In this document: one piece after another, positions 16,762 to 54,760 of the stretch
How the letters are laid out: every line of letters begins with the position of its first letter
Numbering within the stretch: position 1 is the first letter of the stretch
DNA from: Patescibacteria group bacterium
Lineage (GTDB): Bacteria; Patescibacteriota; Patescibacteriia; Buchananbacterales; UBA6539
Reading direction: 5' to 3'
Assembly: GCA_041649675.1 (NCBI GenBank)
Contig: JBAZMQ010000004.1
Location: 16,338-80,337, forward strand
Length of the DNA stretch: 64,000 nucleotides
Notes under the pieces: model-generated
The model's input: the letters and a program-made list of their open reading frames with translations, nothing else
Told to the model about the DNA's origin: nothing
Databases searched by the model: none
Program-made: the position numbers and the translations under genes

Positions 16762-16762
16762 T

Positions 16763-20900: not shown

Positions 20901-20917
20901 CGAGTCAGGTGGGCGGG

Positions 20918-20969
20918 GAGCGCAAGCTTGCGGAGCTTGAGGCCGTAGGTTCGATTCCTACTGGGGACG
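20918..20969 (+). repeat. Tandem direct duplicate of the 3' 52 nt of the tRNA-Arg gene (20849-20900), 17 bp downstream of the intact tRNA
   Basis: Exact 52-nt identity 'gagcgcaagcttgcggagcttgaggccgtaggttcgattcctactggggacg'. Confidence 0.9.
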
Positions 20970-20995
20970 CCATTGTAAAATTATTTTTAGCCAAG

Positions 20996-23059: not shown

Positions 23060-23075
23060 TCTATAACTTATTTAG

Positions 23076-23615: not shown

Positions 23616-23635
23616 TTCCGGGAATTAGGAATCAA

Positions 23636-23688
23636 GAATTAAGAATTAAGGCAAATAATCCAAATTCATGATTCTTAATTCTTAATTC
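23636..23688. terminator. 15-bp perfect inverted repeat (GAATTAAGAATTAAG...CTTAATTCTTAATTC, 23-nt loop) between the radA stop and the mpg start
   Basis: Arms at 23636-23650 and 23674-23688 are exact reverse complements. Either a terminator/attenuator or an operator; only a weak U-tract follows on the minus strand. Confidence 0.45.
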
Positions 23689-23689
23689 A

Positions 23690-34573: not shown

Positions 34574-34585
34574 GTTATTTCCAAT

Positions 34586-37503: not shown

Positions 37504-37511
37504 TAATTATT

Positions 37512-38708: not shown

Positions 38709-38725
38709 CATTAATAATAAATATC

Positions 38726-39334: not shown

Positions 39335-39342
39335 ATTAGCAT

Positions 39343-39627
39343 ATGCTTGTCCCTAAAAAAATGACGAGAATAAAAAAAGCAATACTAGTTTTGGTTAGTA
39401 TTGGGCTTTTGGCAGTCATTGGTTATTTAGTCTATGACAATTTTATTGCTAATCCAAAAATAATCAGTACCAATATTAGCGGCAAGCGAATTCAGGTAAT
39501 CAATATTACCACTATTCAGCCTAATTTTTCCGATGATTTTTTACTTAAGTCGCCCTATACCAATCTCCAATCCCATTCACAGCCAATAATGATTGATAAT
39601 CTTGGTCGGGCAAATCCATTCCAATAA
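39343..39627 (+). CDS. Small membrane-anchored protein (94 aa), possibly PilP-like
   Basis: Single N-terminal TM; position inside the pilus operon. Confidence 0.35.
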   Translation: MLVPKKMTRIKKAILVLVSIGLLAVIGYLVYDNFIANPKIISTNISGKRIQVINITTIQPNFSDDFLLKSPYTNLQSHSQPIMIDNLGRANPFQ

Positions 39628-39666
39628 TATTGGTGCCTAAAAATCTTTTAACCCAATCAATAATTA

Positions 39667-41400
39667 ATGTATCAAGATCAAAACCAATTAGTCCAAGCTT
39701 TAGTTGCCGCCAACTTATTAACGAAAGAGACGGCAACTGATTTGCAAAATAAAGCGATTGCAGCTCAAAAAGCCGTTGAAGATTTGATTGTGGCCGAAAA
39801 TTTAGTCTCGGAAGATAAATTAATTGAAACCAAATCAAAATTATTAAATATTCCAATTACTGATTTGCAAGGCAGACAAATTCCTAAAAAGGTTTTGAAT
39901 TTAATACCGCAAGAAGTAGCTGAAAATTACAAGATGATTCCTTTTGAGCAGGTTGAAAATGAGCTCCATGTCGGCCTGATTAACCCGCAGAATTTTAAAG
40001 CGATTGAAGCAGTTGAGTTTTTAGCCCAGAAGGCTAATTTAAAAGTTCGTTATTTTATAATTTCTAATATTAGTTTTAGAGCGGCTTTTCGTCAGTACCA
40101 AATTCTAGGCGAAGAAGTTAAGGAAGCATTGGCTGATATTACTAATCAACCATCAGTCGGTCAAGAAGTTATGCCTCAAGATGCAAAGGAGATGGAAGAA
40201 GTAATAAAGAGCGCGCCGATTTCAAAAATGGTTTTGGTAATAATCCGTCATGCAATTGATGGCCGAGCCTCAGATATTCATATTGAACCAACAATGAAAG
40301 ATGTTAAAGTTCGTTATCGGATTGATGGTATTTTAAGGACTTCTTTAGTTTTGCCAAGGTATGTTCATTCGGCCATTGTTGCCCGGATAAAAGTTTTAGC
40401 CAATTTAAAGTTAGATGAAACCCGCAAACCACAGGATGGTCGGATTAGATTGACGATTGAAGGCCGCGATATTGATTTCCGTGTTTCTACTTTACCGTTA
40501 TTTGAAGGAGAAAAAGTAGTTTTAAGAATTTTAGACACCCAAGCCCAGGTGCCGGCCTTAGACCAGCTAGGTTTTAATAAAATTCATATTGATTTAATCA
40601 ATGAAGCAATTAAAAAACCTCACGGCTTGACTTTGTTGACTGGTCCGGTCGGTTCGGGTAAAACCACGACTTTGTATACTATTCTGACAATGTTAAATCG
40701 TGACGGTATGAATATTGTTACCCTTGAAGATCCGATTGAATATTATATTTTAGGCGTTAATCAATCTCAAATTAATCCGGACGTCGGTTTTACTTTTGCT
40801 TCTGGGTTAAGGGCAATTTTGCGTCAGGATCCAAATATTGTCATGCTTGGTGAAATTCGTGACAAAGAAACCACTGAATTAGTCGTTCATGCTAGTTTGA
40901 CTGGTCACATGATTCTTTCCACTTTGCATACCAGTAGTGCCATTGGCGCTATTCCTCGGTTAGTTGATTTGGGAGCTGAACCATTTTTACTTTCTTCAAT
41001 TATTAATTTAATTATTGGCCAACGTTTAGCCAGAAAGGTCTGTCCGGATTGTCGGATTGAAGCTGAAGTTCCTGAACCAATAATGAAAAGAATTAAGGAA
41101 CAAATTGCTGGTATTCCGGCTAAATATTTAGTTGGAGTTGACGCTAGTAAGCTAGTATTTTATAGAGGTCAAGGTTGTTCTCACTGCGGAAATTTAGGCT
41201 ATCAGGGCCGGGTGGCGGTGGCGGAAGTAATTAATATTAATAATGAAATTCGCGAGCTTATTAGCGAAGGTGGTAATGTAACGGCAATTAAAAAAGTTTT
41301 AGAAAAACAGGACTTTATTACTCTAACCCAAGATTGTTTGATTAAAGCCTTGCAGGGCATCACTACAGTTGAAGAAGTAATGAGGGTATCTCAGCTCTAA
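39667..41400 (+). CDS. pilB: Type IV pilus assembly ATPase PilB (GspE family)
   Basis: Walker A 'LLTGPVGSGKTTTLY', Asp box, His box and a C-terminal tetracysteine ('CPDC...CSHC'). Confidence 0.9.
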   Translation: MYQDQNQLVQALVAANLLTKETATDLQNKAIAAQKAVEDLIVAENLVSEDKLIETKSKLLNIPITDLQGRQIPKKVLNLIPQEVAENYKMIPFEQVENELHVGLINPQNFKAIEAVEFLAQKANLKVRYFIISNISFRAAFRQYQILGEEVKEALADITNQPSVGQEVMPQDAKEMEEVIKSAPISKMVLVIIRHAIDGRASDIHIEPTMKDVKVRYRIDGILRTSLVLPRYVHSAIVARIKVLANLKLDETRKPQDGRIRLTIEGRDIDFRVSTLPLFEGEKVVLRILDTQAQVPALDQLGFNKIHIDLINEAIKKPHGLTLLTGPVGSGKTTTLYTILTMLNRDGMNIVTLEDPIEYYILGVNQSQINPDVGFTFASGLRAILRQDPNIVMLGEIRDKETTELVVHASLTGHMILSTLHTSSAIGAIPRLVDLGAEPFLLSSIINLIIGQRLARKVCPDCRIEAEVPEPIMKRIKEQIAGIPAKYLVGVDASKLVFYRGQGCSHCGNLGYQGRVAVAEVININNEIRELISEGGNVTAIKKVLEKQDFITLTQDCLIKALQGITTVEEVMRVSQL

Positions 41401-41435
41401 TTATTATTTATAGATTAAATTAAAATTTTAAATTT

Positions 41436-41813
41436 ATGTCTAAGAAAAAATCCATTCTTTTAGTTGAAGATGATGAGTTTTTGGCCGAACTTTATGCGAC
41501 CAAGCTCAATTTGGAGGGGTATGAAGTTTCTTTAGCGGTCAGCGGTGATAAAGGCTTAAAATTAATCAGAGAGAAAAAACCGGATTTGGTTTTGCTGGAT
41601 ATAATTTTACCGAAAATGGACGGGTTTGAGATTCTCAAGGCAGTTAAAGAAGATAAAGCCCTAAAAGACATTCCGATTATTCTTTTAACCAATTTAAGCC
41701 AAAAAGATGAAGTTAAGAAAGGTTTAGAACTGGGAGCGGTTGACTATTTGATTAAGGCCCATTTTATGCCTTCTGAAGTAGTCAAAAAGATAAAACAAGT
41801 GATGGGTGATTAA
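41436..41813 (+). CDS. Stand-alone response-regulator receiver domain protein (CheY/PilH-like)
   Basis: 'ILLVEDDEF...PDLVLLDIILPKMDGFEIL...KDIPIILLTNL' with receiver Asp residues. Confidence 0.8.
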   Translation: MSKKKSILLVEDDEFLAELYATKLNLEGYEVSLAVSGDKGLKLIREKKPDLVLLDIILPKMDGFEILKAVKEDKALKDIPIILLTNLSQKDEVKKGLELGAVDYLIKAHFMPSEVVKKIKQVMGD

Positions 41814-41830
41814 ATTTAAATTATAATTTT

Positions 41831-42904
41831 ATGGAAGCTTCCTCTAACATTATTATCAATAAAATTTTAACGGCGGCGGCTAAACAGCGTGCTTCTAATG
41901 TTCATCTGACCGTTGGCGCCTATCCAACCTTAAGAATTGACGAGGAGTTGTTTGAGCTTAAAGATGAACAAATTATTACCAATGATTTTGTTATTAAGCT
42001 GGCTGATGGTTGGTTGGAAACTGATCAAAAGAAAATATTAGATGAAAAAAGGGAAGTTGTTTTTGTTAAAGAAATTGCTAAACAATTTAGGGTAAAAGTC
42101 GCTTTTTTCTTTCAGAAGAATTTTTTATCCGCTTCTTTAAGGTTAATCCCGGCCCAAATTCCACCATTGATTAATTTAGGTTTGCCTAAGTCAGTTTATA
42201 GTCTGAGTGATAAAAAAGCCGGTTTGATTATTGTTACTGGTCCTTATGGTTCTGGTCGAACAACTACAGTCGCTTCCATCGTTGAGGAAATCAACAAGAG
42301 CCGGAAAGAAAATATTATTACCATTGAACAACCAATTGAATATTTGTTTACTAATAAAGAGAGTTTAATTGAACAAAGGGAGGTTGGCCGAGATGTTAAT
42401 TCCTTTACCGATGCTTTGCAATCTTGTCAGCAGGCCGATGTTGACGTGGTGGCTTTAGCGGTAACCGCTGAGGCTGGAGCAATACCTTTAGCTTTGGAAT
42501 TTGCTAATTCAGGAAGGTTGGCCATTATGACGATGGAAACAGTTTCGGCAATTCAAACCATTGAAGAAATTTTTGCTGCTTTTCCCAAAGAAGAGCAACA
42601 ACGGGCACCACTTTTATTATCTGAAGGTCTGCTGGCAATTATTGCTCAGCGGGTGGTGCCAAAAGTCGGTGGTGGGTTAGTTCTAGCGGCCGAAGTTCTG
42701 ATTGCGACTGAAGCGGTTAAATCATTAATTCGTGAAGGCAGAATTAAACAAATTAATACCATATTGCAAAGCTCACGCGCCGAAGGAATGCTAAGTTTGG
42801 ATCAATCATTGGCTGAGTTGGTCAAATCAGGCGAAGTTTTAATTGATCAAGCAATTGAATATGCCAATGACCCGGGGAGTTTTCGAGCGATGGCCAAAGG
42901 TTAA
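41831..42904 (+). CDS. pilT: Twitching-motility / pilus retraction ATPase PilT
   Basis: Walker A 'IIVTGPYGSGRTTT' and PilT-like length and motifs. Confidence 0.8.
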   Translation: MEASSNIIINKILTAAAKQRASNVHLTVGAYPTLRIDEELFELKDEQIITNDFVIKLADGWLETDQKKILDEKREVVFVKEIAKQFRVKVAFFFQKNFLSASLRLIPAQIPPLINLGLPKSVYSLSDKKAGLIIVTGPYGSGRTTTVASIVEEINKSRKENIITIEQPIEYLFTNKESLIEQREVGRDVNSFTDALQSCQQADVDVVALAVTAEAGAIPLALEFANSGRLAIMTMETVSAIQTIEEIFAAFPKEEQQRAPLLLSEGLLAIIAQRVVPKVGGGLVLAAEVLIATEAVKSLIREGRIKQINTILQSSRAEGMLSLDQSLAELVKSGEVLIDQAIEYANDPGSFRAMAKG

Positions 42905-42939: not shown

Positions 42940-44145
42940 ATGCCTTATTTTCGTTACAAAGCCCAAGATGAAGAAGGGGAAACAATTGAAGGAATGATTC
43001 AAGCTGCTTCTCAGGACGTAGCGGCAGACACTTTGGCTGACCAAAATTTAACTATTTTATTTTTAAGTGAAGAAAAAGTTAGCTTTTTTGAACGGTCATT
43101 AAAATCTTTAAATCGGGTCAAGATTAAAGATCTAGTTATTTTTTCTCGGCAATTATCAGTCATTGTCTCGGCAACAATTCCTTTAGTTCAAGGTTTAAAG
43201 ATTTTAATTAATCAAACCGAAAGTCCGGTTTTAAAAACCGTAATTTCTGAGGTGGCTGATGATGTTGAAGGCGGGGCAAAACTTTCGGCGGCCCTGAGTC
43301 GCCACCGCGAGATATTTAATGATTTTTTTATTAATATTATTAGGTCCGGAGAAACCTCTGGTAAACTGGATGAAGTTTTAAATTATTTGGCTGATCAGCA
43401 GGAAAAAGATTATGATTTGGTTTCTAAAATTCGCGGGGCAATGATTTATCCGGCTTTTATCGTCTCTGGTCTTTTAATCGTTGGTACGGTAATGATGATT
43501 TTTGTCATTCCGCAGTTAACGTCAGTTTTAACCGAGACTGGTGCCGAGCTGCCACTTTCAACTAAGCTTTTAATTGGGGCTAGTAATTTTTTAACCCATT
43601 ATTGGTGGATTTTACTGATTGGTATTTCAGCAGTTATTCTTGGCTTAAGATTTTTTATCAAAACTAAATCGGGCCGGTATTATTGGGATAGTTTGAAATT
43701 GAAGCTTCCGATTTTTGGCAAGTTGTTTCAAAAGATAATTTTAGTTCGGTTTACTCGTAGTCTTTTTACCTTGACCACTGGTGGCGTATCTCTGACCAAA
43801 AGTTTGGATATTGTTTCTGATGTAGTTGGCAATCAGGTATATAAACAGTTGATTCAGGAAACCAAACGGGAGGTTGAAGACGGTAATTCAATTGCCACAG
43901 TTTTTATGCGCAGCAAGCAGGTGCCGGTTATGGTCTCACAAATGCTGAGTTTGGGCGAAAAGACTGGTCGAATTGATGATATTTTAAATCGTCTAGCTAA
44001 TTTTTATGGCCGGGAAGTTGATAATATTGTTACTAATTTAGTTAGTTTGTTAGAGCCATTAATTATGGTTTTGATGGCGGTAGCAGTTGGTGTCCTGGTT
44101 TCAGCAATAATTTTACCGATGTATAGCTTGGCTTCTAGTTTATAG
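42940..44145 (+). CDS. pilC: Type IV pilus inner-membrane platform protein PilC (GspF family)
   Basis: Two T2SS-F repeats and three TM helices, length 401 aa. Confidence 0.85.
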   Translation: MPYFRYKAQDEEGETIEGMIQAASQDVAADTLADQNLTILFLSEEKVSFFERSLKSLNRVKIKDLVIFSRQLSVIVSATIPLVQGLKILINQTESPVLKTVISEVADDVEGGAKLSAALSRHREIFNDFFINIIRSGETSGKLDEVLNYLADQQEKDYDLVSKIRGAMIYPAFIVSGLLIVGTVMMIFVIPQLTSVLTETGAELPLSTKLLIGASNFLTHYWWILLIGISAVILGLRFFIKTKSGRYYWDSLKLKLPIFGKLFQKIILVRFTRSLFTLTTGGVSLTKSLDIVSDVVGNQVYKQLIQETKREVEDGNSIATVFMRSKQVPVMVSQMLSLGEKTGRIDDILNRLANFYGREVDNIVTNLVSLLEPLIMVLMAVAVGVLVSAIILPMYSLASSL

Positions 44146-44249
44146 TTTTTAGCGTTTGTTGATTTGCTAATTTTTTGTTATAATATAAATAATTGTTAAT
44201 AACTAAAAAATAAAAGTTCGCAACAAATGCGACCCAAAACAAGGAAAGG

Positions 44250-44437
44250 GGGTGAAAAAATGAGAAAGAAACAAGGTTTTACTCTTATTGAGTTGCTGGT
44301 AGTTATCGCTATTATTGGACTTTTGTCCACTTTGGCAGTTGTGGCTTTAAATTCCGCTCGTCAGAAGGCCAGGGATGCCAAGCGGGTGGCTGATATTAAA
44401 CAAATTCAGACCGCTTTAGAGCTTTATTTCAACGATA
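44250..44437 (+). repeat. Dispersed direct repeat copy A (~190 bp, ~93% identity overall, including an 89-nt 100%-identical core at 44347-44435) shared with the second pilin gene
   Basis: Direct comparison of the RBS and first ~180 nt of pilin 1 with pilin 2. Confidence 0.85.
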
Positions 44438-44721
44438 ACACAACTTATCCGGCAGCCACTGGTGATCTAGGTTCAACTAATTTTGCCTGTTTAGGTGGTG
44501 GTGGTTTCGGGACAGCCGGCGCTACGGCTTGTACCGGCACTACTTATATGGGGTTGATCCCATCCAATCCAGCCCCGACTGCTGCTTCAACTGGTGTTTA
44601 TTATTATGTTAGCGCTGGCGGAGATAGTTATAATATAATCTTTGCCCTTGAAGGAACTACTGGTGGATTGAACAAGGGAGCCAATGGGCTTTATACTGCC
44701 TCCCAAGACGGAATTAAGTAA
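44260..44721 (+). CDS. pilA: Type IV major pilin, paralog 1 (prepilin with class III signal peptide)
   Basis: 'MRKKQG|FTLIELLVVIAIIGLLSTLAV' prepilin cleavage/methylation motif. The start at ATG 44260 (RBS AGGAAAGGGGG) is preferred over the track start at 44227. Confidence 0.85.
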   Translation: MRKKQGFTLIELLVVIAIIGLLSTLAVVALNSARQKARDAKRVADIKQIQTALELYFNDNTTYPAATGDLGSTNFACLGGGGFGTAGATACTGTTYMGLIPSNPAPTAASTGVYYYVSAGGDSYNIIFALEGTTGGLNKGANGLYTASQDGIK

Positions 44722-44747
44722 TTTTCATATAATCTGGAGCTCCAAAA

Positions 44748-44782
44748 CAAACCCTCCATTACCTGGAGGGTTTGTTATTAAT
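44748..44782 (+). terminator. Intrinsic terminator after pilin 1 (12-bp stem AACAAACCCTCC/GGAGGGTTTGTT, loop ATTACCT, then T-rich)
   Basis: Perfect stem-loop followed by 'ttattaattt'. Confidence 0.75.
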
Positions 44783-44811
44783 TTCAGACCAAAAAATGGT
44801 ATAATAGAATC

Positions 44812-47076
44812 ATGAAATCATTAAAGAAAAATTTTTTGGTAATTGGCGGCTTTTTAGCTTTGGTGGTTTTATTTTTTTCACCTTATCTATTATCAGGAAA
44901 AATTCCTTATGTCGGAGATTTCACCGGCAGTGATTTAACCGAACTCAATCTACCTTTACGATTTTTAGCCAGCCAATCATGGCAATCTGGCCAGGTGCCG
45001 CTTTGGACTAATCTTCTAGCCAATGGTTTTGCCATCGTGGCTGAAGGCCAGGCGGGAGTTTTTTATCCTTTTAATTTAATCCTTTTCCCTTTTCTGCCCT
45101 TTGGTTTAGCCGTTAATCTGAGCCTGGTGATTAATTTCTTCCTGGCCGGTTTATTTATATACATTTACTGCCGATTTTTAAAAATTAGTCGCTTTGGTTC
45201 AATTTTTGCCGCAGTTGCTTTTAGTTTCAGTGGCTTTTTTGTTTTTCGGTTAAAGCATTTAAATTTGGTTAATGCCGCAATTTGGTTGCCATTAATATTC
45301 TATTTGATTGAAAAATATTTTGTTAGCAAAAGAAAATCATTAATTTTAATTGCTTTAAGTTTTGTTTTTACCATTCAATTTTTTGCCGGTCATCCGCAAA
45401 TTTTGTATATTTCTTTAATTTCAGCGGTTTTCTATTTTTACTTGAAAGCAATTTTTGTTTTCAATTTCAAAATTAATTATTTAATTACTAAATTAATCTG
45501 GCCTTGGATAATTATTGGCTTGATCTTGTTTGGTTTGGCCGCGATTCAGCTCTTACCAACCCTTTTTTATTCAGCTTCTTCCGGCCGAAGCTTAGCCATG
45601 TCTTATACTGATATCACCGGTTTTCCTTTTTTACCAGCCAATATTTTGTATTTTGTTGCGCCCTATTTTTTGGGCAATCCGGCTTTTGGGACTTATCCAT
45701 TTGATACTCATATTTTTGGTATCTTTTGGGAAAATAATATTTATTTTGGTTTAAGTGCCTTGCTTTTGGCTTTGGTGGCCATTTTTTCTTTAGTGGCCAA
45801 AAAGAAGGAAGTTAGATTTTTAGTAATTTTATTTTTGTTTTCCGGTTTATTTATCCTTGGCGATTCCAATCCAATATTTATTATTCTTTGGCAATTATTA
45901 CCGGGCTTGCAAATGTTTCGTTTTCCTCAACGCTTTTTTCTTTTGGCTTTATTTTGTCTAACGGTTTTGGCCGGATTTGGTTTTGATTTTATTTTTGAAA
46001 AAATAAATCAATGGTTTTTAAAAACCGGACGGATAATAAAATCAAAAATTTTGTTTAATACTTTATTACCGCTGACACTAATTTTAATTTTAGCTGTTGA
46101 TTTATTTGTAGTAAGCTTCAATTATTTGGGAGCGTTGGATTATGGGAAATATTTTTCTCCCTCGCAAAGTGCGCAATTTTTGCAACAAGACCCAGATAAA
46201 TTCAGAATTTATAGTTTTGACTGGCCAAACACTTGGAGTTCTATTTATCAAGTGTCTGGCGGTTGGCAAAATAATCTTTCACTTTTTAATTCCGGCCGCG
46301 AACTAATTCCGCCAAATTTGAATGTATTTTGGAATTTAGCTTCGGCTCAGGACAGAGCTTCTTTGGAAGGCGGCATGTTACCGAAAGCTGCCCAGCAGTT
46401 AGGCAACCGTTTAATGTTAGAGACTTGGTTGGGCAAAAATAATAATGGTAATAAAATTATTGTTTCCGATCAAGCCTTAAAAATTTTTGGCTTAGAAAAT
46501 GTTAAATATTTTTTATCATTCAAGGAGCTTGATAATCAGAATTTAATTTTAGCTAAGGAGATAAAAAATGATTTTTTGCCACCGCTAAAAATTTATCAAA
46601 ACAAATATTTTTTACCTTTCGCCTTTGGTGTGTTTAAAACGAAGTCAATATTGGCCGATGATCAGGCGATGAATTATCTTTTTGATCCGAATTTTGATCC
46701 GGCTCAAGAAATAGTTTTGGCTGCCGCTAAGGCTGATTTACCATCAACGGTTGAAAAACCGCAAGGGCAAGTCAAAATAATAAAGCAGCTTGGCAACCAA
46801 ATAGTTTTTCAAGTTAATTTTTCTCAGCCTGGCTATTTATTTGTTAGTCAAAATTTTGTGCCTGGTTGGCAAGCCAAAATTGATAATCAACCAACTAAAA
46901 TTATCAGAGCTAACCAAGTTTTCTCGGCAGTTTTAGTCCCAGCCGGTAATTACCAAATTACTTTTGCTTTTGAACCAATTGCTTATCTAATTGGTAAGTG
47001 GCTAACATTAATTACTTTGGCCAGTATATTTGTTTTTGGACTTTATGCTTTCTTTCGTAAAAAGTCAGTAATTTAA
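44812..47076 (+). CDS. Large polytopic membrane protein, YfhO-like putative GT-C glycosyltransferase (754 aa)
   Basis: About 12 N-terminal TM helices, a ~330-aa extracytoplasmic domain and a terminal TM ('WLTLITLASIFVFGLYAFF'). Own extended -10 'TGGTATAAT' at 44786-44794. Confidence 0.4.
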   Translation: MKSLKKNFLVIGGFLALVVLFFSPYLLSGKIPYVGDFTGSDLTELNLPLRFLASQSWQSGQVPLWTNLLANGFAIVAEGQAGVFYPFNLILFPFLPFGLAVNLSLVINFFLAGLFIYIYCRFLKISRFGSIFAAVAFSFSGFFVFRLKHLNLVNAAIWLPLIFYLIEKYFVSKRKSLILIALSFVFTIQFFAGHPQILYISLISAVFYFYLKAIFVFNFKINYLITKLIWPWIIIGLILFGLAAIQLLPTLFYSASSGRSLAMSYTDITGFPFLPANILYFVAPYFLGNPAFGTYPFDTHIFGIFWENNIYFGLSALLLALVAIFSLVAKKKEVRFLVILFLFSGLFILGDSNPIFIILWQLLPGLQMFRFPQRFFLLALFCLTVLAGFGFDFIFEKINQWFLKTGRIIKSKILFNTLLPLTLILILAVDLFVVSFNYLGALDYGKYFSPSQSAQFLQQDPDKFRIYSFDWPNTWSSIYQVSGGWQNNLSLFNSGRELIPPNLNVFWNLASAQDRASLEGGMLPKAAQQLGNRLMLETWLGKNNNGNKIIVSDQALKIFGLENVKYFLSFKELDNQNLILAKEIKNDFLPPLKIYQNKYFLPFAFGVFKTKSILADDQAMNYLFDPNFDPAQEIVLAAAKADLPSTVEKPQGQVKIIKQLGNQIVFQVNFSQPGYLFVSQNFVPGWQAKIDNQPTKIIRANQVFSAVLVPAGNYQITFAFEPIAYLIGKWLTLITLASIFVFGLYAFFRKKSVI

Positions 47077-47093
47077 TATTATATAATAATTTT

Positions 47094-48491
47094 ATGGCCA
47101 TTACTTTGGGCAATAAACAGTTAAGCAATTTATTTTATTTTGTTGTTGCTTATATTTTAATTTTGATTGGTTACGCTGCCAACCGCGGCTTATTTTTTAG
47201 CCAAACACAAGTCTGGTTTTTAATTTTAGCCTGGTTATTTTTAGTTTTGCCGTTTTTCAAAAAACAATTGTTGACTTTCAGGCTCAATCTTGATTTGCTA
47301 AACCTTCTTTTGTTAGTAGTTGGTTTTACCTTTTGTTTATCTTTGTTTTTTGACGAAGCAATGTATTTTTCCTCAAGGCAAGCTTTCTCAAATGTTTTTT
47401 TGTTAAAATCCCTGGCTTTGATTTTATTTCTTTTTTATTTTATTGATTTTAAATTTTTGTCTAAGAATTTTTTTAGTCTTGTCCTTTTGCATCTTTGGAA
47501 GAATAAGTTTATCTATTTATTAATTATTGCTTTTTTGCTTCGTTTATTAATAATTTTTTACTCACCCGCACCGCAAATTGATGTTTTTTGGTTTTTAGAC
47601 GGTGGCGCTAAGGCTTTAGTGGCCGGTCATAATCCTTATTCGGAAGTATTTTTTAATCCTTATACTGCTGATCAAGGAAAACAACTTTATGGTGATGCTA
47701 ATTTTCAAAATGATAATTACTCCTATTTACCAACAACTATTTTTTTGACTACTATCTCTAAATTATTTTTTGGCGACGTTCGCTTTATTTATTTGTTTGC
47801 GGTTTTTGGTACCGCAGCAATCATTTATTTTTTAGTTAGAAGAAAATTCGGCCAGCCAGCGGAAATTGCCGAGTTATTATCTTTGCTAATTCTTTATGCG
47901 CCGCTATCGCTTTTTGTTTTAGAGCAGGCCTGGAGCGAGCCGCTATCAATCTTTTTGTTGGCTTTATTTGTTTTGGCTGTAAGTCTTAATTGGCGTTATC
48001 TGCCGTATTTAATTTTTGGTTCTTTTCTGGGAGTCAAGCAGGTCTCTTTGGTATTTTTGGCTTTTTTATGTCGTTTTGAGTTTATTAATCCAAAGAAGTA
48101 TTTGTTGTCCATCGTGACAATGTTAGCAATTATTCTTCCTTTTTTAGCTTGGGACTGCCGTAATTTTATTAATGACACTATTGTTCATCACGTTTTATTT
48201 CAGCCGCCGCTTCATTCATTGACTTTGAATACTCTAAGCAGAATCTTATTTTATCAAGATATCCCAGCAGTAATTTATTTGCCTTTATTATTAGGCTTAT
48301 TCTTATTTTTATTTTTTAAAACTAAAAGAGATTTATCGGGCATTATTCACTCCTCGTTAGTTTTTCTTTTTGCCTTATTTTTAATAAAACAAGGTTTTGC
48401 TAATTACTATTATAGTATTATTGGTGGCCTAATAATTCTAATGGCTTTGGAATTAGGCCAACCCGACTTAAATTATGAAAATCAAAAATAA
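47094..48491 (+). CDS. Polytopic membrane protein (465 aa), putative GT-C-type glycosyl/mannosyltransferase
   Basis: More than 10 predicted TM helices with short loops. No soluble domain. Confidence 0.4.
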   Translation: MAITLGNKQLSNLFYFVVAYILILIGYAANRGLFFSQTQVWFLILAWLFLVLPFFKKQLLTFRLNLDLLNLLLLVVGFTFCLSLFFDEAMYFSSRQAFSNVFLLKSLALILFLFYFIDFKFLSKNFFSLVLLHLWKNKFIYLLIIAFLLRLLIIFYSPAPQIDVFWFLDGGAKALVAGHNPYSEVFFNPYTADQGKQLYGDANFQNDNYSYLPTTIFLTTISKLFFGDVRFIYLFAVFGTAAIIYFLVRRKFGQPAEIAELLSLLILYAPLSLFVLEQAWSEPLSIFLLALFVLAVSLNWRYLPYLIFGSFLGVKQVSLVFLAFLCRFEFINPKKYLLSIVTMLAIILPFLAWDCRNFINDTIVHHVLFQPPLHSLTLNTLSRILFYQDIPAVIYLPLLLGLFLFLFFKTKRDLSGIIHSSLVFLFALFLIKQGFANYYYSIIGGLIILMALELGQPDLNYENQK

Positions 48492-50346
48492 ATTGGATAA
48501 ATTATACAAAGCATTGATTAGCCAGTACCAAAAATTAATAATAGATAGAAATTTTATTCTAGCGGCTGTAATTTTTACCGTCGCCATTGCCGTCTATCTT
48601 TTTACTTTGGCCCCGTCAGTTACCATGGAAGATAGTGCTGAATTGATTACCACCGCTTACACTTTAGGCATTGCCCACCCTTCCGGTTATCCGTTATATG
48701 TTTTATTGGGTCACCTTTTTACCTGTATTCCTTGGGCAACGATTGCTTGGCGGGTTAATTTGTTGTCAGCCGTTTTTGGCGCTTTAACAATTGCTTTGTT
48801 CTATTTGATTTTAGTTAAAATAAATATTAAAAAGCCAATTGCCTTTTGTTGTGGCTTGGTTGCCGCTTTTGGCCCGATATTTTGGTCACAAAGCGTAGTA
48901 GCCAAATTTTATACCCTCAATACCTTCTTTGTTTGTTTATTAATTTTAATTCTTTTAATTTGGTCACAAAAAAAAGAAAACAAATACTTGCTTTGGTTTT
49001 CTTTGCTGTATGGAGTTAGCTTGACTAACCACACGATGATTATTCTCTTAGCGCCGGCTTTTGCCGTCTATATAGTTTTTACCGAGCGTAAAATTATTTT
49101 GAATTGGCCTTTGATTTTAAAAATGTTTATCCTTTTTTTGTTAGGCCTGCTTGTTTATTTATATATCCCGATTCGGGCCTGGCAAAAGCCGGTTTTTAAC
49201 TGGGGAATTATTAGTACCTGGCATGATGTTTGGGTTCATATTGGTAGGCGACAGTATAATGATTTTTCACCTTTGCTCAATTCTTACGGCAAAGTTGGCA
49301 TTTTTGTTTCTTTTATTTTTGAAATTTATCGTCAATTTTTTTGGCCGGCTTTACTGCTAGCATTTTTAGGCGTGGTCTATCTTTGGCAAAAGAGTAAGGC
49401 CTTAACGCTTTTAACGGTCGGTGTTTTTTTAGGCAATAGCCTGGGAATAATTTTTTTGCGTAAATTTGGTTGGGGATTAGGAATTGATTATACTTACCGA
49501 GTTTATTATTTGCCAGCTTTTTTAATGGTTATCGTTTGGGTTGCATTTATTATTAATTATCTTTATAATTTTTTGATTCAAGCGCTTGCTGGCAAACCAA
49601 AATTATTTTTGCGGTTGAGCCAAACAATATTTTTTGTACTTTTGTTTTCTTTACCGCCAAGCTTCTTGATTAATAATTATAAACTCTGCGATTTCAGTCA
49701 TTTCTGGTTTAATTATGATTACACTAAAAATCTTTTGGCCAGCCTTGAACCAAATAGCATTTATTATTTTGCCTACGATGGCAGTTTGCAAGGTGATACT
49801 GAGCTTTTTACTCTAGCTTATTTTAAAATGGTCCAAAATTTTCGGCCTGATGTCAGCGTAATTTCTGAGCAAAATCTTTTTTACAAGGATGTTTTGATCA
49901 CCTTACCTAAGGAGTATTACAAATTAGACTTTGAAAATCGCCGAAAAGAGATTTTTAAATTGTTACAAGAAATAAAGGGTCGGCCGATTTACTCTAATTT
50001 TGCTCCAACCAATGATGATCTAACCGCTGGAGTTTTTGCTTTGTCAAATGGTTATGCCTATCGGTTTTATTCAAACATTAAATTAGCAGCTCAGGTAAAA
50101 CCGACATTATATTTAGCGGCAATTAGGGGCCTGAGCGAAGTAGATGAACTTGATGATTATCCAACTGCCGGGCTAGCGGCCCATTATTATTATAATTTAG
50201 CTTCCTTTTATTTGACGGCCGGGCAAAAGAATAAATCGCAATATTATTTAATCAAGGCTTTTAATTTAGACACCGCACCGCAGAATCATGAATATCGTCG
50301 ATTTATGGTTTACCGTTCCCAGTGGTTAAAACAAGGTAAAAATTAA
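48475..50346 (+). CDS. DUF2723/TMEM260-like polytopic membrane protein with C-terminal soluble repeat domain (putative O-glycosyltransferase)
   Basis: N-terminal 'MEDSAELITTAYTLGIAHPSGYPLY' matches the conserved DUF2723 acidic/HPPGYP-type motif. About 11 TM helices plus a ~270-aa C-terminal domain. Confidence 0.45.
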   Translation: MKIKNKLDKLYKALISQYQKLIIDRNFILAAVIFTVAIAVYLFTLAPSVTMEDSAELITTAYTLGIAHPSGYPLYVLLGHLFTCIPWATIAWRVNLLSAVFGALTIALFYLILVKINIKKPIAFCCGLVAAFGPIFWSQSVVAKFYTLNTFFVCLLILILLIWSQKKENKYLLWFSLLYGVSLTNHTMIILLAPAFAVYIVFTERKIILNWPLILKMFILFLLGLLVYLYIPIRAWQKPVFNWGIISTWHDVWVHIGRRQYNDFSPLLNSYGKVGIFVSFIFEIYRQFFWPALLLAFLGVVYLWQKSKALTLLTVGVFLGNSLGIIFLRKFGWGLGIDYTYRVYYLPAFLMVIVWVAFIINYLYNFLIQALAGKPKLFLRLSQTIFFVLLFSLPPSFLINNYKLCDFSHFWFNYDYTKNLLASLEPNSIYYFAYDGSLQGDTELFTLAYFKMVQNFRPDVSVISEQNLFYKDVLITLPKEYYKLDFENRRKEIFKLLQEIKGRPIYSNFAPTNDDLTAGVFALSNGYAYRFYSNIKLAAQVKPTLYLAAIRGLSEVDELDDYPTAGLAAHYYYNLASFYLTAGQKNKSQYYLIKAFNLDTAPQNHEYRRFMVYRSQWLKQGKN

Positions 50347-50456
50347 TAAATTGGTTGTCAGTTGTATTTACTAAAAACATAAATTCTGGTATAATCTAGA
50401 GTAGAGGATTTAATCTCAATTTAAATACTAAAAAAACAAAGAAAAAACAAAGAAAG

Positions 50457-50644
50457 GGGGTGGAAAATGAGAAAGAAACAAGGTTTTACTCTTATTGAGT
50501 TGTTGGTAGTTATTGCCATTATTGGGCTTTTGTCCACTTTGGCAGTAGTTTCATTAAATTCCGCTCGTCAGAAGGCCAGGGATGCCAAGCGGGTGGCTGA
50601 TATTAAACAAATTCAGACCGCTTTAGAGCTTTATTTCAACGACA
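50457..50644 (+). repeat. Dispersed direct repeat copy B (partner of 44250-44437)
   Basis: See copy A. The 89-nt identical core is at 50554-50642. Confidence 0.85.
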
Positions 50645-50949
50645 ATAATAGTTATCCTAACGACGTTGGTGCTGATGTGACTTTGGGTGGATCGGCTAGT
50701 AATAATTGTTTGGGTAATGACGGTTTCAATACCGCTGGTAGCACTTGTTCAGCGCCAGTTTATATGGGCTTAATTCCTTCTAATCCAACACCCGGTGGAA
50801 CAGCCTATATTTATCAAGGGGTAGGCGAAACCGGTGGTTATTGCCAAACTGGCATTTGTCCTAAATATCAAATTACATTTAGTTTAGAAGGCAAGACCGG
50901 TGGTTTAGAATCAGGTCTCCATACTGCTTATCAAGACGGAATGAAATAA
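50467..50949 (+). CDS. pilA: Type IV major pilin, paralog 2
   Basis: 'MRKKQG|FTLIELLVVIAIIGLLSTLAV'. The first 60 aa are near-identical to paralog 1 and the C-terminal half diverges (more Cys residues). Confidence 0.85.
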   Translation: MRKKQGFTLIELLVVIAIIGLLSTLAVVSLNSARQKARDAKRVADIKQIQTALELYFNDNNSYPNDVGADVTLGGSASNNCLGNDGFNTAGSTCSAPVYMGLIPSNPTPGGTAYIYQGVGETGGYCQTGICPKYQITFSLEGKTGGLESGLHTAYQDGMK

Positions 50950-50965
50950 TTTCTAAATATAGATC

Positions 50966-51006
50966 AAAACAAGGCTTTGCTCTTCGGTGAGGCCTTGTTT
51001 TTTGCC
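50966..51006 (+). terminator. Intrinsic terminator after pilin 2 (10-bp stem CAAAACAAGGC/GCCTTGTTTT, 16-nt loop, T-run)
   Basis: Inverted repeat followed by 'ttttttgcc'. Confidence 0.7.
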
Positions 51007-51102
51007 AGTTTTATGGTTTGTCTTATTTGTTTTTGTAAGGTAAAATTAAGATATAACCGCTTAATTAATTAAGGTAAGTTTTGGTTACTTTATTAATGTT
51101 TT

Positions 51103-51849
51103 ATGTATAGTTTTTTCATCTTTATCCTAGGACTGATAGTTGGTAGTTTTTTAAATGTGGTTATTCTGCGGCTAGGGACTAAAAAGTCGTTTTTCACCGG
51201 CCGGTCCCAATGCCCTTGTTGCGGCAAAAAAATTGCGGCTTACGACAATATTCCTCTAGTCAGTTTTATTCTTCTGCGCGGTCATTGTCGTAATTGTAAG
51301 AAAAATATTTCTTGGCAGTATCCTTTAATTGAATTACTCACTGCTTTTATTTTTGTTTGGTTCTCTCTGCGTTTTGGTTTAACGGCGCAGTTTTTAATTT
51401 ACTCAATTTTTAGTAGTTTTTTAATAGTCATTTTTGTCTATGATCTTAAAAACTATTTGATCCTGGATCAAATTACAATCCCAGCAATGGTCATTGCTTT
51501 TTTTTCCAGTCTATACTTGGGCCTCGGTCTAGGGAATATAATTTTAGCCGCTATTATTGGCAGCGGCTTTTTTGCCCTTCAGTACTTTATTTCAAAAGGT
51601 AAATGGGTTGGTGATGGTGATATTCGCCTAGGGGCTTTAATGGGTTTAATGCTGGGTTGGAAATTTTTGTTAGTCGCTTTATTTTTGGCCTATATTATTG
51701 GTAGCATCTTTGGTCTCACTTTAATTTTGGTGGGCAAAAAAAAGATGTCTTCGGCCGTACCTTTTGGTCCGTTTTTAACTCTTGGTACCTTCATTGCTTT
51801 GATTTACGGGCAATCAATTTTAAATTGGTATTTTAATTTACTTTATTGA
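51103..51849 (+). CDS. pilD: Prepilin peptidase PilD (A24 family)
   Basis: N-terminal tetracysteine 'CPCCGKK...CRNC', multiple TM helices and conserved Asp residues. Confidence 0.85.
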   Translation: MYSFFIFILGLIVGSFLNVVILRLGTKKSFFTGRSQCPCCGKKIAAYDNIPLVSFILLRGHCRNCKKNISWQYPLIELLTAFIFVWFSLRFGLTAQFLIYSIFSSFLIVIFVYDLKNYLILDQITIPAMVIAFFSSLYLGLGLGNIILAAIIGSGFFALQYFISKGKWVGDGDIRLGALMGLMLGWKFLLVALFLAYIIGSIFGLTLILVGKKKMSSAVPFGPFLTLGTFIALIYGQSILNWYFNLLY

Positions 51850-52502
51850 TGAACAGATTTTTAGTTAAAAAATCATCACGACGTTTCCCCTCAGCCGGTT
51901 TTACCGTAATTGATCTTTTGGTTTCAGTAGCGATACTGGGAATAATGCTTACTTTTGTTTTAGCTAACTTTCGGGCCGCTAAAACTAGCGGTGATTTAGA
52001 TGTTGTTATTAAAAGAATTGTTGACGGGATTACTACGGTTAGAAATATGAGTTTAGGCGGTCAACTGACCAACAGTTCTTTCCCCGAAGGTGGTTATGGC
52101 ATCCATTTTGATTTTGATAATCCCAACCGTTATATTTTGTTTTTAGCGGCTGTAGCTGGTAATAGCTATATTCCTAATGTTAACGGATTAAGTAATGGTA
52201 TTGTTGAATTTGACGGCATTAAATTAACAGAAGTTTGTGGCCATAAAGAGTTACAATTAAATGAAACTTTGGGTTTACCTTGTACCGACAGTTGGCAAAG
52301 AATTAATTGGCAAACAGCTGGCGATTTTATGGAAATTAAATTCTTAGCTTACAATGAAATGGCCATTAATTATTCTAACTATCAATTAAGTGATGACTTT
52401 AAATATATTGGCGGGGTTGTTAGCCAGGAAAAAACTGGTCAAACCGGCTATTTCTATGTTTCCTTAGTTTCCGGCTTAATTTCTGGTGATTTAAAAAGAT
52501 GA
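51846..52502 (+). CDS. Minor pilin / pseudopilin
   Basis: Prepilin motif 'SAGFTVIDLLVSVAILGIM'. Confidence 0.6.
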   Translation: MMNRFLVKKSSRRFPSAGFTVIDLLVSVAILGIMLTFVLANFRAAKTSGDLDVVIKRIVDGITTVRNMSLGGQLTNSSFPEGGYGIHFDFDNPNRYILFLAAVAGNSYIPNVNGLSNGIVEFDGIKLTEVCGHKELQLNETLGLPCTDSWQRINWQTAGDFMEIKFLAYNEMAINYSNYQLSDDFKYIGGVVSQEKTGQTGYFYVSLVSGLISGDLKR

Positions 52503-53104
52503 AAAATAAGAAAAAATTACAATTTGGCCAAAGCTTATTAGAAACAATTTTTGCAATCGGCATTCTATTGATTGTGTTAGCAGCAATTCTGGCTTTGGTT
52601 ACCTCCTCGGTGATTGGTCAAAAAGAAAGTGAATCGCAAATTATTGCTAATAATTTGGGCCGGGAAGCAATTGAAGCGGTTAGAAATATCCGTGATTCAA
52701 ATTGGCTAGGCAATCAGCAATGGGATTTGGGTTTGGTTGACCCGGTAACTGCCTCTGGCTATACTGCTGCCCGAGCCGATATTTCTGATACTGGCAGTTG
52801 GCAACTGAGTTTTTTTTCCGATCAGGAAATCAATAATAAAGATTTACTTTACGTTTCGCCTCTGGGCATTTATAGCCATAATCCGATTGGCAGCGAGCAA
52901 TCACTTTTTTCTCGTCATTTAACCTTGGAAAGTATTTGTCAGGGAAAAGATTTGGCTGGCAATTATCTAGCTGAGGTAATTAAAAGGACTTGCGATCAAA
53001 CTGAATTGAAAGTCGGTATTAAAGTTAAAGCAATAGTTCAATGGCAAGAACGCGGCCGACTTCGGCAAGTAGTTTTAGATGATTTAATTTATGAATGGAA
53101 ATAA
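52499..53104 (+). CDS. Minor pilin / pseudopilin
   Basis: Prepilin-like N-terminus 'GQSLLETIFAIGILLIVL'. Confidence 0.55.
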   Translation: MKNKKKLQFGQSLLETIFAIGILLIVLAAILALVTSSVIGQKESESQIIANNLGREAIEAVRNIRDSNWLGNQQWDLGLVDPVTASGYTAARADISDTGSWQLSFFSDQEINNKDLLYVSPLGIYSHNPIGSEQSLFSRHLTLESICQGKDLAGNYLAEVIKRTCDQTELKVGIKVKAIVQWQERGRLRQVVLDDLIYEWK

Positions 53105-53885
53105 TTACAAAAAAATAAAATCCGGATTTACCTTAATTGAAATTTTAGTGGTTTTAGGGATATTTTCGCTTTTAGTGGTTGTTATTATTAATGTTTTTTT
53201 ATTAGCTTTGCAGTCTCAGCGGCAGACTTCCAGTCGTCAAAAATCCTTATCAAATCTTCGCTATGTGACCGAAACCATTGCCCAACGTATCCGAACTTCA
53301 GAGATTAATTATTCAGGTTATGACAACAATATTATTACCAATCCAAACGACAAATTGGCTTTAATTGATCAAGCCGGTAACAAGTTAAATTATTTTAAAG
53401 AGGGGGACAGTATTAAATTTGAAAACGAATCAAGCGGCGAGCAGGCCTTAATTACCGATCTGAGCCAAGTTAAGGTAGTTAATTTATCTTTTTATATTAA
53501 TCCAGTAACCGATCCTTTTACCGAAGATCGCTGCAATGAAGACGCCGATTGCAAAAATTCGTTAATCTCCCTTGGCGGCGGCTGCAGTTTGTTAGGTAAA
53601 ATCTGCAAGGCCGGATCGAATAAAGGCAAACCTTGTTCTTCAGTTAATGATTGTGCTGGTAATGAATGTTATTCCCCGGAATTTAAAGTTGGATTTTGCC
53701 AATGCAGCCAAAATGCCGATTGTAAAACAAATTATTGTCAGCCAAGCGAACATCTGTGCGTGCCGCTTGACCGTCAGCCGCTGGTAACAATGGTTTTGGG
53801 TTTTCAGTCAGTGGGGACAAAAGTTGAGCAGCAAAAAACAATTTATTTACAAACTACTATTTCCAGCCGGATTTATAAGCGTTAA
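53091..53885 (+). CDS. Minor pilin / pseudopilin, Cys-rich C-terminal domain
   Basis: 'KSGFTLIEILVVLGIFSLLVV' class III signal. Confidence 0.6.
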   Translation: MNGNNYKKIKSGFTLIEILVVLGIFSLLVVVIINVFLLALQSQRQTSSRQKSLSNLRYVTETIAQRIRTSEINYSGYDNNIITNPNDKLALIDQAGNKLNYFKEGDSIKFENESSGEQALITDLSQVKVVNLSFYINPVTDPFTEDRCNEDADCKNSLISLGGGCSLLGKICKAGSNKGKPCSSVNDCAGNECYSPEFKVGFCQCSQNADCKTNYCQPSEHLCVPLDRQPLVTMVLGFQSVGTKVEQQKTIYLQTTISSRIYKR

Positions 53886-53887
53886 TT

Positions 53888-54760
53888 ATGACAAGGATTT
53901 TTAAAAAACAATCAGGCATGGTCTTAATTCTGGTAATTTTAATTATTACTGCAGTTTTGGGTACGGCCGCAATTTTTAGTACTTTAATTGTCCGTGATAT
54001 CCAGCAGTCCCGTTTAATTGACCAATCAATCCAAGCCTATTATTTAGCTGAAAGCGGAGCGGAACGGTCTTTGTACCAGGTCCGACGGCGAGAGGCAATA
54101 ACTGATTGTGAAAAAGTGACACTGTCTGGTGTTTGTGATGATAACGGTTATTGTGTTGCTAATTCAACGATCCCTTGCGTTAACCAGGCCGGTGGCTTTG
54201 ATTGGAGTATTCGCGGCGGTTGGCAGATAAAAGCCAGTAACGAAACCGAAACATCATTTTCCTTCAGTCCCGGACAGTCTTTTCAAATTGATCTATTTAA
54301 TCCTTATCAATCAGGTGGTTCCAATATTCGGTCAGTTGGTGTTGATTGCAATATACCCAACCTTACTTTAAACGCAGAGTTTACTAATTTGTCTAATATT
54401 TTAAAAATCAGTAATTCTAATTGTTTAAACCAGCCGCCAGTATTTAAACAGGCAATTGATTCTTACCCTAATTCCATTGCGACTTTGGATGGCCGAGATA
54501 TCTTTACTGATTGTGCTTATAGTTTTCGTTTAACTTATCCGGTTGTTAGCGCCAACGATTCCAATGTCGCTACGGTGGTTACTTTAAAAGTTTATGATTC
54601 AGTTGGCAGTCAAATTGATATTCCCAGTCGTTTAATTATTGATTCCCAAGCGACCTTTGGTAATTCTTTTCAAAAGATTCGGGTTAGAACGCCAATGCGT
54701 CCGCCGTTATCCGGTCTTTATGATTTTGTTTTATTTTCCGAACAACCAATAATTAAGTAA
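53888..54760 (+). CDS. PilX-like minor pilin
   Basis: N-terminal 'KQSGMVLILVILIITAVLGTAAIFS' hydrophobic prepilin-like segment. Confidence 0.5.
   Translation: MTRIFKKQSGMVLILVILIITAVLGTAAIFSTLIVRDIQQSRLIDQSIQAYYLAESGAERSLYQVRRREAITDCEKVTLSGVCDDNGYCVANSTIPCVNQAGGFDWSIRGGWQIKASNETETSFSFSPGQSFQIDLFNPYQSGGSNIRSVGVDCNIPNLTLNAEFTNLSNILKISNSNCLNQPPVFKQAIDSYPNSIATLDGRDIFTDCAYSFRLTYPVVSANDSNVATVVTLKVYDSVGSQIDIPSRLIIDSQATFGNSFQKIRVRTPMRPPLSGLYDFVLFSEQPIIK

Follow-up and report, generated by a model that had tools for sequence, protein, structure and literature searches.

The DNA considered here is a stretch of 64,000 nt from a Patescibacteria group bacterium (GenBank assembly GCA_041649675.1, contig JBAZMQ010000004.1, positions 16,338 to 80,337 of the forward strand), referred to below as the window and numbered from its first letter. 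By a Pfam scan of its open reading frames (ORFs) the locus belongs to a complete operon for type IV pili, of which it forms the major-pilin part, and the organism is a Buchananbacteria-like Patescibacterium, the nearest homologues being annotated as proteins of Patescibacteria or Candidatus Buchananbacteria metagenome-assembled genomes. Two major-pilin genes, pilA1 (44260-44721) and pilA2 (50467-50949), both on the forward strand, enclose a cassette of three genes for GT-C-like membrane glycosyltransferases and have nearly identical 5′ ends. The reading favoured here, with a probability of about 0.8, is that these are duplicated pilins placed around a GT-C cassette, and that the near-identity of their 5′ ends derives from recent ectopic gene conversion whose tracts end with the alpha1 helix. 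As judged from the sequence comparisons below, this near-identity of some 190 nt carries the signature of non-reciprocal homologous recombination, i.e., of ectopic gene conversion.

The repeated 5′ segment

A repeat search of the window returned the two pilin genes as direct repeats of 205 nt with 91% identity, copy 1 lying at 44246-44450 and copy 2 at 50453-50657 (both on the forward strand) and covering the ribosome-binding site (RBS) and the sequence coding for the signal peptide and alpha1 helix. The ungapped offset between the copies is 6207 nt, in agreement with an earlier note on this DNA, which had described direct repeats about 6.2 kb apart. The exact 89-nt core given in that note (44347-44435, equal to 50554-50642) was confirmed, and no such match occurred in 100 dinucleotide shuffles. 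No further copy of the block was found in the 64-kb window with a search allowing three mismatches, the two pilin copies being the only ones, while an FTLIE-type search of the window returned the two pilin genes and one minor pilin at 53124. Counted from the ATG, the first 180 nt of the two genes are 94.4% identical, with 10 mismatches (at +36, 47, 50, 59, 80, 83, 84, 86, 176, and 179), and 59 of 60 residues are the same (the exception being A29S), so that the first 60 or so codons are indeed nearly identical, as had been proposed.

Two other parts of the earlier description need amending. The RBS regions had been called identical, which is true of the RBS core GAAAGGGGGTG but not of the spacer between RBS and ATG, which differs by a 1-nt indel and a substitution; upstream, sharing is limited to this core and a TGnTATAAT-type -10 element. 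The C-terminal halves had been said to diverge completely, but they can still be aligned, with approximately 55% amino acid identity and the common motifs YMGLIPSNP, LEGxTGGL, and QDG. Their synonymous sites are saturated (proportion of synonymous differences, pS, 0.68).

The possibility that the repeat is an assembly artefact was rejected. The exact block of 89 nt is shorter than the k of 141 implied by the contig names (k141_...), a near-identical contig (L001, with 5 single-nucleotide polymorphisms in 20.5 kb and 0 in the repeat) has the same structure, and the same pattern is present in three relatives on JGI and NCBI contigs.

Concerted evolution in twelve genomes

Relatives of the locus were gathered from the contexts of pilin homologues and from alignment scans with the TMEM260-like protein of the cassette, the scans giving 3 loci on genome contigs and 11 in metagenomes. 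Both pilins can be seen in 11 complete loci and in the window, i.e., in 12 genomes, and the identity test covered the first 159 nt (53 codons, counted from G(-1)) of these 12 pairs, in all of which both bracketing pilins have intact 5′ ends. The alpha1 protein sequence is near-invariant among them (GFTLIELLVVIAIIGLLSTLAVVALNSARxKARDAKRVADIKQ[IV]QTALELYF), with the divergent A2 pilin of locus L007 as the exception. The within-genome nucleotide identity of A1 and A2 is 95.0% in the window, 98.7% in L002, 99.4% in L003, and 96.2% in L009, with pS values of 0.18, 0.03, 0.03, and 0.15, respectively. It is 77-86% in a further seven genomes (L004, L005, L016, L017, L019, L024, and L025) and 67% in L007, where A2 is the outlier; within-genome pS in these eight is approximately 0.5-0.7. 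Between genomes, identity has a median of 78%, a 95th percentile of 82%, and a maximum of 90.6% (the L017/L019 orthologues), and pS is again approximately 0.5-0.7. Locus L004 serves as a control, as its paralogues are identical in 100% of residues yet in only 83% of nucleotides. Because of this, protein constraint alone appears to account for approximately 80% nucleotide identity, and the excess up to 95-99% is attributed on these comparisons to gene conversion.

A comparison of synonymous divergence in the shared block and in the rest of the gene had been suggested in the earlier note as a check for gene conversion, and it was carried out with the Nei-Gojobori method (dS, synonymous substitutions per synonymous site) and a Fisher test on the 5′ 53 codons against the remainder. 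In the window dS is 0.20 for the 5′ segment and 1.76 for the rest (p = 8e-7), placing the shared block far below the rest of the gene. The corresponding values are 0.03 and 0.73 in L002 (p = 5e-7), 0.03 and 2.87 in L003 (p = 2.4e-14), and 0.17 and 1.28 in L009 (p = 2.9e-6). No such contrast was found in the six non-homogenised genomes tested (L004, L005, L016, L019, L024, and L025). Gene conversion, which had been raised as a possibility, is thus upheld for the conserved 5′ block, where paralogues are more alike than orthologues, but not for the swapping of variable domains.

Within the window the segment is itself a mosaic. The two copies differ at 8 positions in their first 87 nt; codons 1-24 hold seven synonymous differences and one nonsynonymous difference, and codons 25-53 hold none (p = 0.008). 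The latter stretch lies inside the exact 89-nt block and differs at 0 of 19 synonymous sites, against a background pS of at least 0.38 (median 0.82). Such a pattern would fit two successive conversions, the later of them shorter and superimposed on the earlier.

In the tree of the 5′ nucleotide sequences, A1 pairs with A2 of the same genome, except for L017 and L019, which pair by orthologue (A1-A1 90%, A2-A2 91%, paralogues 82%). In the tree of the globular-domain proteins no pair forms by genome; six A1 and seven A2 proteins form type-specific groups, and an extra Cys-containing loop is found only in A2-type genes. As this loop and the A1 and A2 types are common across the genomes, the duplication predates their divergence. 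The four homogenised genomes differ by approximately 20% from one another in the converted segment, and therefore their homogenisations are recent and independent and not one ancestral event. Taken over the 12 genomes, the alignments point firmly to episodic homogenisation, independent in several lineages and decaying between events.

The 5′ limits of the tracts lie 18-37 nt upstream of the G(-1) codon, in the RBS or 5′ untranslated region (UTR), and the 3′ limit is the same in all, namely the end of alpha1 (...LELYFND), where the paralogues stop aligning as DNA. Identity reaches the RBS/5′ UTR in the window, L002, L003, and L016. In L016 some 70 nt upstream of the genes (332-400 and 7523-7591, comprising 5′ UTR and RBS) are almost identical, while identity of the coding 5′ ends is only 85%. 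Lineages differ in where their conversion tracts lie.

The cassette and its surroundings in related loci

Fifteen related loci carry the YfhO/TMEM260 cassette together with whichever pilin gene their contig reaches. The common order is pilC, an optional additional pilin (A0), A1, the YfhO-like gene, a variable middle, the TMEM260-like gene, A2, and pilD. The YfhO-like and TMEM260-like genes are present in all 15, and they lie between the pilins in all 12 genomes in which both pilins are seen. The middle of the cassette among relatives consists of a GT87-like gene, an S-adenosylmethionine (SAM)-dependent methyltransferase gene, both, or neither. The methyltransferase replaces or joins the GT87-like gene in L003 (7458-8102), L004 (7485-8126), L024 (4824-5471), L025 (7501-8079), L005 (9413-9988), and L018 (3672-4313), and neither gene is present in L007, L017, and L019. 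In L009 the YfhO-like gene (4492-6716) is split into ORFs of 266 and 454 aa around 5247-5352, which may reflect a pseudogene or a sequencing error.

The extra pilin A0, of approximately 139 aa, lies between pilC and A1 in 7 of 11 loci scanned (examples being L002 3474-3893, L003 4162-4578, and L004 4138-4560), with a fragment also at the start of L016; its 5′ end is approximately 60% identical to those of A1 and A2. It is absent from the window (44145-44260), L009, and L025, where pilA1 directly follows pilC, and the gap of about 700 nt between pilC and A1 in L017 gave no A0 match.

Two loci lack the cassette. L012 belongs to a more distant lineage and has tandem pilins which are 73% identical at the 5′ end. 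L026 (1-1832) has the tail of an A1-like pilin, then a response-regulator-like gene on the reverse strand (233 aa), and next an A2-like pilin and pilD, with no GT-C cassette between the pilins. Both were considered as simple products of crossover and rejected, the first being a distant tandem lineage and the second having a different gene between its pilins. No deletion product (pilC, chimeric pilin, pilD) was found among the contexts reached through pilin homologues.

Alternative explanations

The earlier note had suggested that the arrangement might be a simple pilin variation system. In its programmed or semi-programmed form, recombination between the repeats would delete the 6.2-kb cassette or swap the variable domains, switching pilus type and glycosylation state. 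The direct repeats, 6207 nt apart, have an exact core of 89 nt, a length sufficient for homologous recombination; relatives do differ in the genes that they carry between the pilins, and in L026 only the response-regulator-like gene separates them. Nevertheless, the YfhO-like and TMEM260-like genes remain between the pilins in 12 of 12 genomes, both near-identical contigs of the window strain are intact, and no deletion junction or chimeric allele was found in the loci fetched. Conversion has affected the conserved part of the genes, while the variable domains stay distinct, keep type-specific features, are mostly grouped by A1/A2 type, and in no case pair by genome. The two genes are each complete and provided with a promoter-like site and RBS, and the 64-kb window has just these two copies and no silent cassettes. 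Neither strand of 43900-51300 has a G-quadruplex (G4) motif of the form (G3+N1-7)x4, and nothing invertase-like was seen among the surveyed ORFs. Programmed variation is consequently regarded as quite improbable. A looser version, in which pilins vary through deletion or through exchange of the cassette, is also given a low probability, its sole hints being the variable cassette middle and the order of genes in L026. Of the known variation systems, inversion of the Piv type was rejected since the repeats are direct and no recombinase domain was detected among the window ORFs scanned, and variation of the Neisseria pilE/pilS type was rejected in view of the missing silent cassettes and G4 motif and the variable domains, which are not exchanged.

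Purifying selection on the class III signal peptide and alpha1 helix, offered in the earlier note as the alternative, does have in its favour that alpha1 is near-invariant in the majority of the A1 and A2 genes from the 12 genomes. As the sole cause of the DNA identity it is very hard to maintain, as the same protein is encoded at approximately 78% nucleotide identity between genomes and 77-86% within seven of them, the L004 paralogues encode identical residues with 83% identical nucleotides, and codons 25-53 of the window pair are free of synonymous differences where the background is high. Very little credence is likewise given to the idea that the genes were duplicated recently and that their globular domains then diversified very quickly, with no conversion involved. 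Fast evolution is known for pilin globular domains, and the proportion of nonsynonymous differences (pN) in the C-terminal part is 0.32; against this, one and the same gene pair combines a saturated C-terminal dS of 1.76 with a 5′ dS of 0.20, and the A1/A2 globular types, the A2 Cys loop, and the positions of A1 and A2 are common across genomes. Finally, a functional element at the nucleotide level in the first 180 nt (a structured RNA, regulatory site, or translation-control signal) would fit the extension of identity into the RBS and 5′ UTR in four loci, but is scarcely credible given the free synonymous divergence between genomes and within eight genomes and an Rfam scan of 43900-51300 (E ≤ 1) with no match in the repeat, sub-threshold, hairpin-driven leader-type matches occurring at the pilA1 terminator only. 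At the nucleotide level, the data show no conservation other than that due to codon constraint.

A number of points weigh against gene conversion between old duplicates around a glycosylation cassette as presented here. The TMEM260-like protein served as the query for most of the relatives, so that the sample is biased in favour of loci in which the cassette is retained. The tree of C-terminal protein sequences does not split cleanly in two, the A1 proteins of the window, L004, and L007 lying near the A2 group. Recent homogenisation is seen in only 4 of the 12 genomes; conversion is therefore sporadic and does not require selection for it. The window contains no gene for RecA. No gene for synthesis of a polyprenyl-phosphate-sugar donor was found in the window, and gene neighbourhood and homology are the basis on which glycosylation of the pilins, their co-assembly, and the expression of both genes are predicted. 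In addition, the similarity of the last 27 or so codons, described next, could reflect either an older conversion or co-evolution of the C-terminal strand or tail.

These last codons (window 44641-44718 and 50869-50946; also in L002-L005 and L016) are 72-81% identical in nucleotides within genomes and 52-70% between them, and there are lineage-specific C-terminal residues common to A1 and A2, such as GQTGGL(S/T)GTAHTA in L004 and GGLDAGTHVAS in L005.

Proposed mechanism

Under the favoured reading of gene conversion, an old duplication would have given rise to two major pilins, A1 and A2, flanking the GT-C cassette. Strong purifying selection on alpha1 would keep the copies approximately 80% alike, which may be enough for recombination to start, and conversion would then make the two 5′ segments identical, the tract stopping where the globular-domain sequences are too different to pair. 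The recombination is envisaged as being of the RecA type, between direct repeats on the same or the sister chromosome, and ending without a crossover; genes for RecG and RadA are present in the window. Were the repeats to cross over instead, the 6.2-kb cassette would be lost by excision and a pilA1-promoter::pilA2 chimera would remain. Crossover products are presumably rare or counter-selected, because the arrangement is kept in every genome with both pilins.

As for the consequences, PilD and the assembly platform would meet one and the same signal peptide and filament-core helix in both pilins. Since the two have signal peptide and alpha1 in common, they are expected to be handled alike and to be packable in one filament core, and they could co-polymerise, or either could take the place of the other, with different surfaces facing outward.

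A more speculative and rather unlikely view is that the space between the pilins is a surface-decoration slot exchangeable by recombination, in which the glycosyltransferases and the adjacent pilin globular domain are replaced as a unit. The pilin 5′ ends, which would be maintained as identical or near-identical both within strains and between close ones, would act together with pilC and pilD as homology arms for DNA taken up through the same pilus, with ComFC, RadA, and RecG encoded nearby, and the varying cassette content and cassette-less L026 would be footprints of exchange. If true, these episymbiont-like bacteria would be able to change their pilus glycan or surface, with possible effects on host range or phage evasion.

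Glycosyltransferases between the pilins

The three bracketed genes had been described as encoding GT-C-like membrane proteins, and this assignment stands. By homology and predicted fold they encode GT-C-fold membrane glycosyltransferases that are YfhO-like, GT87/PimE-like, and TMEM260/PMT-like, respectively, with 9-17 overlapping hydrophobic windows each. Enzymes of the GT-C fold use lipid-linked sugar donors.

The first gene (44812-47076, forward strand) codes for a YfhO-like protein of 754 aa (Pfam YfhO, 7e-20) with weak C-terminal similarity to the Streptococcus mutans protein-glycosylation proteins PgfM1/PgfM2. The second (47094-48491, forward strand) codes for a protein of 465 aa with no match in Pfam (E ≤ 10) or NCBIfam, which is assigned as GT87/PimE/PIG-M-like from its distant homologues, profile, and predicted fold. 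These homologues carry PF09594 (GT87), and a profile built from 26 sequences matches GPI mannosyltransferase I (E 3e-4). Its AF2 (AlphaFold) model has a predicted local distance difference test (pLDDT) score of 92.6 and is almost wholly alpha-helical, with 22 helices; the best folds are PimE, GPI-MT-I, and ArnT (probability 1.0, TM 0.44-0.55), followed by PIG-U and ALG enzymes. The protein has an invariant PxID motif (P160, D163), of which D163 is invariant across 26 GT87-like homologues. The third gene (48475-50346, forward strand) codes for a TMEM260-like/PMT_2 protein of 623 aa resembling protein O-mannosyltransferases (TMEM260-like 2.5e-32, PMT_2 3.4e-6), with a TPR-like C-terminus (weak TPR match). 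Residues E52, D53, and E56 are invariant in four orthologues, and E52-D53 lie in the predicted first loop. Human TMEM260 is a protein O-mannosyltransferase with the catalytic residue Asp52 in loop 1, which E52-D53 of the window protein parallel (PMC10214176).

The pilin variable domains consist of 18-22% Ser+Thr and 19-20% Gly, a composition compatible with O-glycosylation although not diagnostic of it. Most likely, the GT-C enzymes O-glycosylate the Ser/Thr/Gly-rich pilin globular domains on the outer face of the membrane. There is a precedent in the GT-C enzyme TfpW, which is encoded beside pilA and glycosylates the Pseudomonas aeruginosa pilin (bioRxiv 10.1101/2020.04.19.049825; PMC5836110). 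The P. aeruginosa group IV pilin and its arabinosyltransferase TfpW resemble the present locus in having a GT-C gene directly downstream of the major pilin gene, with predicted action on pilin Ser/Thr outside the cytoplasm in both cases. Unlike the TfpW system, the window has three different GT-C enzymes, none of them a demonstrated TfpW homologue, as well as a second flanking pilin. Full-text literature searches found no paper linking YfhO-like or TMEM260-like enzymes to pilins.

Relation to known systems

Gene conversion between paralogues, paired major pilins with identical alpha1, and pilin-adjacent GT-C enzymes are each already known; full-text searches found no paper describing these three features together in Patescibacteria. 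For the first, the kinetics of ectopic gene conversion between bacterial paralogues such as duplicated tuf genes have been studied (PMC5485169). Concerted evolution of the tuf type has in common with the pilins non-reciprocal homogenisation of a tract, paralogues that are more alike than orthologues, and a tract ending where homology ends. In contrast to tuf, only the 5′ third of the pilin gene is homogenised and the rest is divergent, giving a mosaic pair, and the process is episodic (4 of 12 lineages).

The pili of Streptococcus sanguinis are stochastic heteropolymers built from a pair of major pilins, PilE1 and PilE2, with identical alpha1 (PMC10628169). These two pilins have extensive identity throughout (PMC10628169), whereas the globular domains of the window pilins are approximately 55% identical. 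The likeness lies in a single-membrane bacterium having, within one pilus locus, two paralogous major pilins which differ in their globular part or tail. The PilE1 and PilE2 genes are adjacent, unlike those of the window pilins, which glycosyltransferase genes separate by 6.2 kb and whose co-assembly is a prediction.

In the Neisseria pilE/pilS system there is also RecA-type gene conversion between pilin-related sequences, as mentioned in PMC4569582. There, promoterless silent cassettes without the conserved 5′ end are the source from which the variable region is converted, and a G4 is needed; in the window it is the conserved 5′ end that is converted, between two complete genes and with no silent copies or G4. 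A further parallel is provided by the archaeal adhesion pilins PilA1-6 of Haloferax volcanii, paralogues which are reported (Esquivel et al. 2013) to have an identical N-terminal hydrophobic domain and divergent C-terminal parts.

Organisation of the pilus operon

The window has dedicated machinery for a type IVa-like pilus in one locus (PilD, PilB, PilC, PilM, PilO, and a PilT-like T2SSE ATPase). Upstream of pilC, and together spanning 36361-42904, are pilM (from 36361, Pfam PilM_2), pilO (from 38726, Pfam PilO), pilB (from 39667, Pfam T2SSE), a response regulator gene (from 41436) between pilB and the pilT-like gene, and the pilT-like ATPase gene itself (from 41831, Pfam T2SSE). The head of the operon (32258-36259 and 37512-38708) also has three ORFs of 771, 557, and 398 aa with no Pfam match, the 398-aa ORF occupying the position of PilN. 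The neighbour directly upstream of pilA1 is pilC, coding for the T2SSF platform protein (42940-44145, forward strand, Pfam T2SSF 2e-59).

The pilA1 product has 153 aa, two Cys in its globular domain, and an N-terminus matching N_methyl (PF07963, 5.6e-10) and TIGR02532 and resembling GspG. Its true start is the ATG at 44260; the ORF opening at 44227, from which the gene record starts pilA1 to give 164 aa, is an in-frame upstream extension. The pilA2 product has 160 aa (N_methyl PF07963, 6.6e-10) and four Cys in its globular domain, including the extra Cys loop typical of A2-type orthologues, and its orthologues in relatives are 65-80% identical. The class III signal is the same in both pilins, MRKKQG followed by FTLIELLVVIAIIGLL, with a basic leader ending in Gly, FTLIE with Glu5, and the hydrophobic alpha1.

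A promoter-like site, an RBS, and a terminator-like hairpin of its own accompany each of the two pilin genes. For pilA1 a promoter-like site is called at 44164-44193, including an extended -10 element, TGtTATAAT (44176-44184, forward strand), both as consensus matches only, and a terminator-like hairpin with a 13-bp stem lies just 3′ of the gene (44746-44776, forward strand). For pilA2 there is a promoter-like site with a TG-extended -10 (TTTACT-N17-TATAAT, 50367-50395, forward strand), matching the consensus at 10 of 12 positions and on the consensus only; 3′ of the gene (approximately 50966-51005, forward strand) a hairpin formed by AAAACAAGGC...GCCTTGTTTT and followed by a T run resembles an intrinsic terminator, as read from the sequence. 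Downstream are pilD for the prepilin peptidase (51103-51849, forward strand, Pfam A24_N_bact 8e-33 and Peptidase_A24) and four minor-pilin-like genes (51846-54760) with N_methyl matches in their ORFs.

Elsewhere in the window

A cluster related to DNA uptake and recombination occupies 19370-25036. It comprises genes for a ComFC-like protein with a phosphoribosyltransferase domain and a double zinc ribbon (19370-20029), RecG (20909-23059), a methylpurine-DNA glycosylase (23076-23615, reverse strand), and a RadA/Sms-like protein (23690-25036, reverse strand). Positions 26-11781 hold two giant ORFs of 2629 and 1285 aa; the former has a single CBM_4_9 carbohydrate-binding domain and otherwise no Pfam match, and the latter has no Pfam match. 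Just downstream of them (15626-18685), a PrgI-family protein and a VirB4/TraG-type P-loop ATPase are encoded as a pair of type IV secretion/conjugation-like genes.

Significance for the pili of Patescibacteria

The 12 genomes amount to a natural experiment in which the same constraint applies throughout and the DNA has been homogenised in four but not in eight, which separates constraint from conversion. Caution is called for in annotation and tree building, as trees of Patescibacteria pilins made from the N-terminal half group paralogues by genome and hide orthology. Pili of Patescibacteria are thought to mediate host attachment and DNA uptake (PMC11623550). Two major pilins whose filament core is interchangeable appear to be made by the present lineage, which also keeps three dedicated GT-C enzymes within its pilus operon; for the pili of this uncultivated group, glycosylation and possibly a heteropolymeric make-up are predicted.

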